Positions 27,998-30,195 of a stretch of DNA of 64,000 bases are shown piece after piece. Position 1 is the first letter of the stretch, and each line of letters begins with the position of its first letter. The DNA lies in contig CAWBEI010000004.1 in assembly GCA_963787835.1 (NCBI GenBank), positions 224,001 through 288,000 of the forward strand, read 5' to 3'. The position numbers and the translations under genes are program-made. A model generated the notes under the pieces. It was not told the DNA's origin. It was given only the letters and a program-made list of their open reading frames with translations, and ran no database searches. Source of the stretch: Ignavibacteriota bacterium. GTDB lineage: Bacteria > Bacteroidota > Ignavibacteria > Palsa-1295.

Positions 27998-28402
27998 TTA
28001 ACCTAAACCCATAACCAACAGTCCAGGAACGCGATTGAAGTCCCGCTCATTCAAGGTAACTATTGCGTGTCCGTTACGAATGCAGGATGCGGCGATCCAC
28101 AAATCGTGTAACCCAATGATCTCACCTCTCGTCAGTAGGTCTGCCCATATCACGGCGTGGACGCGGGCCGTTTCCTCATCGATGGGAACGATGGGATATC
28201 GTGCAATGATCGGAGTGAGGAATCGGATTCGCTCTTGCCGGTATTTAGCGGTTGTTGCTCGCTCAACGCCATGCAATAATTCACTGAGCGTAATGACGGA
28301 GAGTAAGCATTCCGAGTTTGCATACTCACGCAACGTTTCGTGAAGCGGCAATCCATTACGCTCGGCGTGGATAATGACGCCGGAATCAATTATGAAGCCC
28401 AC
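27998..28402 (-). CDS. vapC: PIN-domain (VapC-type) toxin
   Basis: IIDSGVII, ITLSELLHG, HDLWIAASC, VTLNERDFNRVPGL. Confidence 0.9.
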   Translation of the reverse strand: MGFIIDSGVIIHAERNGLPLHETLREYANSECLLSVITLSELLHGVERATTAKYRQERIRFLTPIIARYPIVPIDEETARVHAVIWADLLTRGEIIGLHDLWIAASCIRNGHAIVTLNERDFNRVPGLLVMGLG

Positions 28403-28668
28403 GGGTCGCGGATGGTTTGAGCGTTAGCCAGTCGGCGTAATTCTGCCACATCTTTCGCGAATGCCTCGGCATTTTCAGAGGAAAGATGCGGAAGCGATTC
28501 AAAAAAATCGGAGAGTTCGCCAACGCGTATGCCAGATTTCGGCGCCGGTTGCACCTCGTCTGCGGAAGTGATAGAGATTCGGATCGTCTCATGGGCGAAG
28601 AGCGCCTTGATCTTATCGACCAGCGGCGACCCGAGTTCATCCGAATTTAGTTGAAAGATTGCTTCCAT
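28390..28668 (-). CDS. putative antitoxin for the downstream PIN toxin
   Basis: 92 aa acidic ORF ending RDPWAS and overlapping the toxin start. Confidence 0.72.
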   Translation of the reverse strand: MEAIFQLNSDELGSPLVDKIKALFAHETIRISITSADEVQPAPKSGIRVGELSDFFESLPHLSSENAEAFAKDVAELRRLANAQTIRDPWAS

Positions 28669-28998
28669 GTATTCCCTAACGGCAAGGCTGAGATAACAGT
28701 TGCCAGAATAATATCCGGATTTCAAGCGCGGGGGAAAATAATGACGTAGATTAGTGTTTGCTTTGATGGGCACCTGTATCAATTTTCAATTAAGAATTGA
28801 GAATTAAGAATGGGGGCTGCGATCGTTCATTGAAAATTGCGATGGGTTTCGATATGAACGAGTTCTTTGTGAAAGGGAATTTTTAATAACTTTTACAACA
28901 AATGGCGAAATTAGCTCAAATTCGAGGGTGGTCGGGAACTCAACAAGAAAAAAAATGGCACCTATTTCTTTGGGCAAGTGAGCACCATTTTCCAGTAG

Positions 28999-30195
28999 CT
29001 AATGAGTACCTTGTTTCTCATACCGCTCCACAAACTCGGGGTCGCGGCGGCGGAGATTTTCGTGATCTACTTTGCCGGAGCGGGTCATGAGCTTGTAGGC
29101 AAAGGGGAGCGGGTCGAGGTGCATGTAGTCCTTGAGGTTTTCGAACATGAGCAGGCTTTCCATGGCTGCTTCCTGGTATTCGTCCACCACGGGCCGGCGC
29201 CGCGCTTCGAATTCGATGAGGGCATCGGGAAGTTTATCGGTTGTTTGGAGCGCGTGGAATAAGGCGATCGAATCCTCCAGCGCAAGCTTGGTTCCCGAAC
29301 CGATCGAGAAATGGACGGTGGCGAGGGAATCGCCAAGCAATGTAGCGCAAACTTCAGTTTGCGATCGGGCGTAAGGGTCGCGAACTGAAGTTCGCGCAAC
29401 ATTTTGCGCCACGCACCACCAATGCCGGTTACGAACGAAGGTAAAATTCAGCCATTTGGAATTATTCGAGAGCAAGGGTTCACCCTGAAGATCGAGATGA
29501 AACACTTGTTCGAGATAGTGACGAGCAGAGTCATCATCCATATCTTCGAAACCTGCGGATTCCCATGTTTCGGGATCGCACTCGACGATGAAGGTGCTGG
29601 TATTTTTATCGAATTTGTACGCATGAGCAGCAAACACTCCGGCGCTATTCTCTCGGAAGATGAGAGTCAGCCCATGGAACAAATGCCGTGTACCGAACCA
29701 GATATATTTATTGCTTCGCGTGGAAAGATCGGGCTTGAACTGCTCCTGGAACTCGGAACGAACTCCGCTGGCAACGCCATCGGCGCCAACAACGAGATCG
29801 TATCCACCGCCGCGCACCAGGGATTCTATATGATTCACAGGCAAACGAAAATGAAGATTTACTCCAAGCTCGCCGCATCGATCCTGAAGAACTTTCAGCA
29901 TTTCGATGCGCGCGATGCCGGAAAATTTATTTCCACGCACGGTGATCTTTTCATCGCGATAAATAATATCGACGTTCTCCCAGCGTTCGAAGCGGTCGAT
30001 AATTCCTTGCCACGATGGGACGTCCTCCGCTTCGAGATAACTGAGCGTTTTATCCGAGAACACGACGCCCCAGCCGAAGGTATCGGTTGGTGCGTTGCGC
30101 TCGAAGAGGTCGATGTGGACTTCGGGACGCCATTTTTTTACGAGGAGCGAAAAATACAAACCCGCCGGTCCGCCGCCGATAACTGCGATCTTCAT
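28999..30195 (-). CDS. FAD-dependent monooxygenase (salicylyl-CoA/anthraniloyl-CoA monooxygenase N-terminal-like)
   Basis: GGGPAGLY, TFGWGVVFSD, ADG, LLGD..HFSIGSGTKLALED, LMTRS. Confidence 0.88.
   Translation of the reverse strand: MKIAVIGGGPAGLYFSLLVKKWRPEVHIDLFERNAPTDTFGWGVVFSDKTLSYLEAEDVPSWQGIIDRFERWENVDIIYRDEKITVRGNKFSGIARIEMLKVLQDRCGELGVNLHFRLPVNHIESLVRGGGYDLVVGADGVASGVRSEFQEQFKPDLSTRSNKYIWFGTRHLFHGLTLIFRENSAGVFAAHAYKFDKNTSTFIVECDPETWESAGFEDMDDDSARHYLEQVFHLDLQGEPLLSNNSKWLNFTFVRNRHWWCVAQNVARTSVRDPYARSQTEVCATLLGDSLATVHFSIGSGTKLALEDSIALFHALQTTDKLPDALIEFEARRRPVVDEYQEAAMESLLMFENLKDYMHLDPLPFAYKLMTRSGKVDHENLRRRDPEFVERYEKQGTH
29341..29401. repeat. GTAG-type REP-like palindrome inserted in frame in the monooxygenase gene
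   Basis: Arms tgtagcgcaaacttcagtttgcga (29341-29364) and tcgcgaactgaagttcgcgcaaca (29378-29401), 21/24 complementary. Confidence 0.85.

Follow-up and report, generated by a model that had tools for sequence, protein, structure and literature searches.

The window examined here, a stretch of 64,000 nucleotides from the genome of an Ignavibacteriota bacterium (designated G000; other G-numbers denote congeneric genomes and P-numbers homologous proteins), contains a flavin monooxygenase gene carrying a translated palindromic element. The features of the locus are as follows:

28999..30195, minus strand: host gene, encoding a stand-alone flavin monooxygenase of 398 aa, ORF unbroken
29329..29340, minus strand: GD motif, codons L286-L287-G288-D289, intact
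29341..29364, plus strand: REP arm 1, perfect consensus (T, GTAG tag, perfect stem, short loop), encoding residues 278-285, of which V282-T285 are modelled within the strand preceding the GD motif
29365..29377, no strand: spacer, 13 nt, variable, its length keeping both arms in a single open frame
29378..29401, minus strand: REP arm 2, three differences from consensus
29402..29413, minus strand: REP-end duplicate, a degenerate tandem copy, 12 nt long, of the GTAG end, falling within residues 261-265

The host protein is homologous to the N-terminal half of salicylyl-CoA 5-hydroxylase (NF006101, positions 1-383 of 768). The bifunctional salicylyl-CoA 5-hydroxylase (PRK08255) comprises an N-terminal monooxygenase fused to a C-terminal oxidoreductase, whereas the host gene lacks the C-terminal part, its ORF ending at residue 398 and scoring 444.7 bits against a cut-off of 1078. 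The closest solved structural relative is VioD (TM 0.81, VioD-like fold), and the nearest named homologues, at 70-72% identity, are from Candidatus Kapabacteria, to which the host therefore likely belongs. The gene is present as a single copy in the G000 genome. G288 and D289 of the GD motif, which we take to contact FAD as in other flavin monooxygenases, are invariant across 110 aligned sequences. Just after the monooxygenase stop lies an intergenic repeat of ~210-230 nt with an internal heptamer run (28761-28990), represented in the genome by 67 BLAST pieces, at least 45 of them at least 134 nt long at 69-85% identity, and without a match in Rfam. A PIN-domain gene with a small upstream ORF that lacks a Pfam family (27998-28782, minus strand) probably constitutes a toxin-antitoxin pair.

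The first-pass annotation had described a 61-bp hairpin with 24-bp arms, and such an inverted repeat is found at 29341-29401, its arms matching at 21 of 24 positions around a 13-nt spacer. It folds with -41.9 kcal/mol (z = -6.05; none of 200 shuffles as good), and its coding strand with z = -7.35. Each arm is itself palindromic: a perfect stem of 7-8 bp with a short loop comes after a GTAG tag, which in the folded arm is unpaired and outside the stem, as in GTAG-type REPs. The hairpin is a head-to-head pair of GTAG-tagged REP palindromes, i.e. a REPIN. In arm 2 the GTAG tag, intact in most copies, is mutated, while two paired changes preserve the arm's own small perfect stem, and this variant sequence occurs nowhere else in the G000 genome. 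The 12-nt end duplicate is cleaner in G006, and similar end duplicates lie beside other REP copies. Together, doublet and duplicate form a non-native segment of 75 nt (29341-29415, residues 261-285), which displaces five native codons for a net gain of 20 aa. The reading of the element in frame, with neither stop nor frameshift, is borne out by the unbroken ORF, and the translation agrees with that first given. An Rfam search of 28700-29600 returned no family above the gathering score, and two chance microRNA matches of 20-21 bits.

The element belongs to a dispersed family, in keeping with the suggestion of a multi-copy, mobile-type repeat. A search of the G000 genome found 32 loci within four mismatches of the arm and none with a reversed-pattern control; as assigned by a simple gene caller, 16 are intergenic, seven lie at gene ends and nine are internal, a mostly extragenic distribution of the kind expected of GTAG-type REPs. 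Both arm orientations are present at 14 of the 32 loci (13 spaced doublets and one collapsed) with variable spacers, as in REPINs. The nine internal copies reside in eight genes, encoding MurB, DXS, MnmE, MTA/SAH nucleosidase, EgtB, a glucose-6-phosphate isomerase-like protein, HutH (twice) and the monooxygenase of the window, and all nine are read in the same frame. This frame is the only one open on both strands in a consensus-like copy (two doublets translated), and the copy in the window keeps it open on its coding strand. Of 14 other genomes of the genus, 11 contain the repeat, compared with none of 20 from other genera of the family; among the matches listed, an exact 22-mer also occurs in named records of Omnitrophota, Chloroflexota, Acidobacteriota and Poribacteria. 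One Chloroflexota record (L081) carries the same REP arm in the same reading frame within a glycosyltransferase-like ORF. The collapsed type is exemplified by the MTA/SAH nucleosidase gene (L044, G000 C2:1082348-1082375), where a 28-nt perfect palindrome stands in place of the doublet of its G006 counterpart, through an in-frame deletion of 33 nt between the two arm centres, likely a decay route of doublets.

A candidate mover is encoded in the same genome. Of ten Y1 transposase matches in G000, seven were scanned and two exceeded the RAYT cut-off. The RAYT at C2:1501666-1502331 (NF047646, 83.9 bits against an NCBIfam cut-off of 80) has a doublet on one side and a single arm on the other, and is thus flanked by the repeat, as RAYTs are by their cognate REPs in REPIN-RAYT systems. 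Among 30 RAYT loci fetched from the genus out of the listed matches, three have arms at both ends (in G000, G005 and G014); in a tree built from 26 of the fetched loci they group as a single clade (support 99/99). Members of this clade were absent from the fetched RAYT loci of G006 (a genome 80% complete), G002 and G009, all of which carry the repeat. The second RAYT, at C2:1492681-1493049, was rejected as the cognate enzyme, because the only arms in its vicinity lie within the neighbouring hutH, at a distance above 650 nt, and because arms are also missing at the three congeneric loci nearest to it in the tree and at two more distant ones. The repeat has likely been spread by the dedicated RAYT transposase of the genome.

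Comparison with homologues agrees with an in-frame insertion of about 20 aa, as the first-pass annotation had proposed: among the 118 parsable of 120 homologues, the RHWW-like motif and LLGD enclose a segment of 9 residues in 88, versus 29 here, and the 30 longer segments all fall within the 38 best homologue matches. The insert does lie beside the GD motif, directly before G288-D289. Neither of the two outcomes named beforehand as counting against the insertion, an equally long non-palindromic loop in homologues or a lack of other genomic copies, was found. In the AlphaFold model (mean pLDDT 90.9), residues 261-280 form a loop between two strands at pLDDT 60-65 and are followed by a strand at 282-286. 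The repeat-derived residues V282-T285 are modelled in this strand, which leads to the GD motif and where homologues have N-I-V; the native strand residues are retained beside the doublet of G005, and lost in G000, G006 and G002. The insert is thus predicted to be a low-confidence loop whose final residues replace part of the pre-GD strand, and the model would have the repeat recruited into a core strand of the enzyme.

Outside the insert, dN/dS relative to G006 is 0.076 (dS 0.67, 373 codons), and the values for the gene span 0.076-0.096 in five comparisons (G006 and four others); the gene is under purifying selection, which fits the claim that the insertion is tolerated. A decaying pseudogene, or an insert created by faulty assembly, is very improbable, and this reading is already largely refuted. 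Pointing towards it are the position of the insert against the GD motif, the elimination of three native strand residues, and a frameshift at the second repeat of the G014 orthologue; pointing away from it are the low dN/dS, the invariance of catalytic-region columns, and the presence of the same insert in both G006 and the homologue P0002. A 483-nt short-read contig from run X1 also crosses the insert with zero differences, lending weak support against an assembly artefact because run X1 may share sampling with the genome. The RNA contigs from runs X5 and X17, which contain small shares only, do not cross the insert, and that from X17 derives from a relative whose second loop contains another hairpin.

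The insertion had also been called recent, and this part of the claim finds no support. At the same site G006 carries the element with identical junctions, spacer length and end duplication, even at a gene dS of 0.67; its 75 nt differ at eight positions from those of G000, and 10 of the 13 spacer nucleotides are identical. The insertion is therefore probably not recent, judging from its sharing with a species at this synonymous distance, though independent re-insertion in G006 could also be the source of the sharing. For G006, 19 elements drawn from 30 of its 60 arm matches were compared: all four coding copies are shared with G000, and of the 15 others, five are shared, six are absent at the orthologous site and four are undecided. 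Coding copies are shared with G000 in two of four cases in G014 (20 elements examined) and in one of three in G002 (22 elements examined).

The arms of shared copies have changed little. Between G000 and G006 they differ at 5 of 172 nt in the four coding copies and at 6 of 215 nt in five non-coding copies, low values which re-insertion or recombination could mimic, while spacers and flanks of the shared copies diverge by 18-19%. At four-fold silent sites, 2 of 36 differ in the arms versus 308 of 700 in host codons (Fisher p 9e-7), a test that is biased, as the G000 copies and two of the four G006 copies were found by their likeness to the consensus, and whose sites are not independent. Selection at the protein level cannot account for silent-site stasis, pointing to a process at the DNA level, and the comparison suggests that in-frame arms are maintained as DNA. 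Two G002 loci are identical to G000 across 114 nt, and G002 was therefore left out of these conservation estimates.

Selection for a function of the insert, either through an mRNA hairpin that pauses ribosomes or stabilises the transcript, or through a peptide that tunes the enzyme, would also explain strong silent-site conservation, the paired changes that keep the small stem of arm 2 perfect, and persistence of the element across species at such a dS. It is improbable given that non-coding copies are equally conserved and that close homologues have half an element, unrelated repeats or short loops at the same site. Paired stem changes, moreover, can also arise by hairpin-templated repair.

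Alternatively, the copies of G000 and G006 may be recent and independent, or may have been swapped by homologous recombination, so that no renewal in place is needed. Exchange or shared assembly does occur: one G002 locus (L272) matches G000 C4:406131-408121 at 95.8% identity over 2 kb, compared with 78-89% at the other three G002 loci checked, and this region represents either a recent exchange or shared assembly. Loop content is also incongruent with the loop-free protein tree, and the distant homologue P0014 has the same 3' junction. Against this, the junctions, the 12-nt end duplicate and the largely identical 13-nt spacer are common to both copies, every G006 coding copy examined has a same-site counterpart in G000, and silent differences lie immediately beside the arms; we regard independent or swapped copies as rather unlikely.

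The loop has a more complex history among relatives than a single event. In the closest homologues it is either short or filled with the doublet, half an element, a GC-rich hairpin or a tandem heptamer hairpin. Placing the four closest REP-bearing homologues in one clade is rejected by an AU test (p 0.011, the group being chosen post hoc), so that one insertion followed by vertical descent does not account for everything. A single origin of all REP-bearing loops was likewise rejected (AU p 1e-58 for six rows, the groups being named after the tree was seen). Similar turnover is seen in other proteins. The DXS loop has 28-42 residues in nine of the 13 genomes parsed (14 fetched) and 4-7 residues in four; the long versions fall into several sequence types that bear no relation to one another, each with a predicted fold (-23 to -80 kcal/mol). 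The picture is the same for HutH and MurB, and a crude scan of G000 gave 40 candidate repeat-derived internal segments in 37 genes, from several families.

Further sites of this kind were noted in passing. A second loop of the monooxygenase (~29200-29260, after the GTKLALE helix) is short in the copy of the window and contains a different, GC-rich hairpin in frame in G006, G005, G002 and several P-proteins; in G014 the hairpin coincides with a frameshift that may be real or an assembly error. In murB of G000 (L043, C2:690000-690067) a second palindrome family is nested inside one REP arm, and in murB of G005 (L197) that family lies between REP ends in the same loop. In a region encoding a phage-portal-like protein and its neighbours (G000 C2:826945-831531), the REP is in frame in G002, G005 and G014, while the portal site of G000 has a different repeat instead.

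The reading we favour, and consider probable, is that of a REPIN copied into the gene by a RAYT and persisting as a neutral loop passenger in frame, its arms kept by a process acting on DNA. The RAYT of the genome likely copied the REPIN into the monooxygenase gene, and an in-frame arrival in a loop predicted to be tolerant likely explains why the REPIN is still there. The 61-nt element has a single frame free of stops on both strands, so that insertions in other frames or outside tolerant loops would be lost. In this view the peptide would be a neutral passenger in a presumably active enzyme, except for its final residues, predicted to replace the lost native strand residues. The arms would likely be held near consensus by RAYT re-writing or by gene conversion among copies, not by protein selection.

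A bolder extension is possible but doubtful: REPINs in coding genes would be re-written in place, tolerant loops would serve as long-lived slots in which repeats overwrite one another, and the repeat in the monooxygenase would be structural and not cleanly losable. If true, RAYT or conversion between copies resets arms to consensus within essential enzymes, unrelated repeat families overwrite one another across species at a few tolerant loops, and the monooxygenase repeat supplies strand residues preceding the FAD-binding GD motif. The genus also marks loops of DXS, MurB, HutH and the monooxygenase that accept 20-40 extra residues, and illustrates a route by which selfish DNA may enter a protein fold.

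Several known systems resemble the element of the window. Rickettsia palindromic elements (RPEs; Ogata and colleagues, as cited in PMC3733652 and PMC3184786), put forward by the first-pass annotation as the precedent, are likewise palindromes translated in frame in functional proteins, but as described in the cited parts of these papers they are CGTC-tagged, ~105-146 nt long and from intracellular alphaproteobacteria, and CGTC repeats have no dedicated transposase. With its GTAG tag, 61 nt and associated RAYT, the element of the window works like an RPE, yet is not one. A closer precedent is the intragenic GTAG REP dimers encoding 20-30 aa in frame, reported by Di Nocera, De Gregorio and Rocco in 2013 (PMC3733652), including 70 rows for Opitutus terrae, one of them a FAD-binding-domain protein; in-frame repeat fusions are also reviewed in PMC3184786. 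According to the relevant sections of PMC3733652, these dimers share with the present element the GTAG tag, the short perfect stem, the 2-nt TY-type loop and the head-to-head arrangement, as well as 20-30 aa insertions into ordinary enzymes, two hits within some genes, and the association with RAYTs. The GTAG phyla given there do not include Bacteroidetes or Chlorobi; in the parts cited, same-site inserts are described only for Xanthomonas recB and no silent-site test is made. Translated REPs being already known, a single insert is ordinary.

The literature search, which covered few subscription papers and no bioRxiv supplements, returned no report of the repeat, the lineage or silent-site conservation of in-frame REPs, and nothing on repeats or palindromes of Kapabacteria, consistent with the earlier statement that none was known in this lineage. 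Two points merit following up: arms read in frame have hardly changed at silent sites, and part of the repeat is predicted to have been recruited into a core strand. The element itself is a real, tolerated and translated REPIN with a likely cognate RAYT.

REPIN-RAYT systems, as outlined in the parts of Bertels and Rainey (bioRxiv 10.1101/2021.07.10.451892) cited here, share with it inverted REPs, conserved arms, a variable spacer and a flanked RAYT, and the REP of the window resembles group 3 REPs (PMC8266576, in the part cited) by shape alone, with a short perfect stem directly after GTAG. By contrast, REPINs are described in that preprint as almost exclusively extragenic, versus nine of 32 loci in frame within genes here, and they measure ~100 nt with hundreds of copies, compared with 61 nt and tens of copies. 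In the REPORTH preprint (bioRxiv 10.1101/2024.10.14.618302), RAYTs are suggested, in the part cited, to modify or replace REPINs in place, and as in the present case one position holds different repeats in different genomes. The REPORTH case concerns extragenic spaces in one Pseudomonas species, whereas here the positions are protein loops, compared across species, and non-REP repeat types are included. The silent sites of the surrounding gene give in-frame copies an internal neutral clock, something intergenic REPINs do not have, and this makes testable the question of in-place REPIN renewal raised by that preprint.
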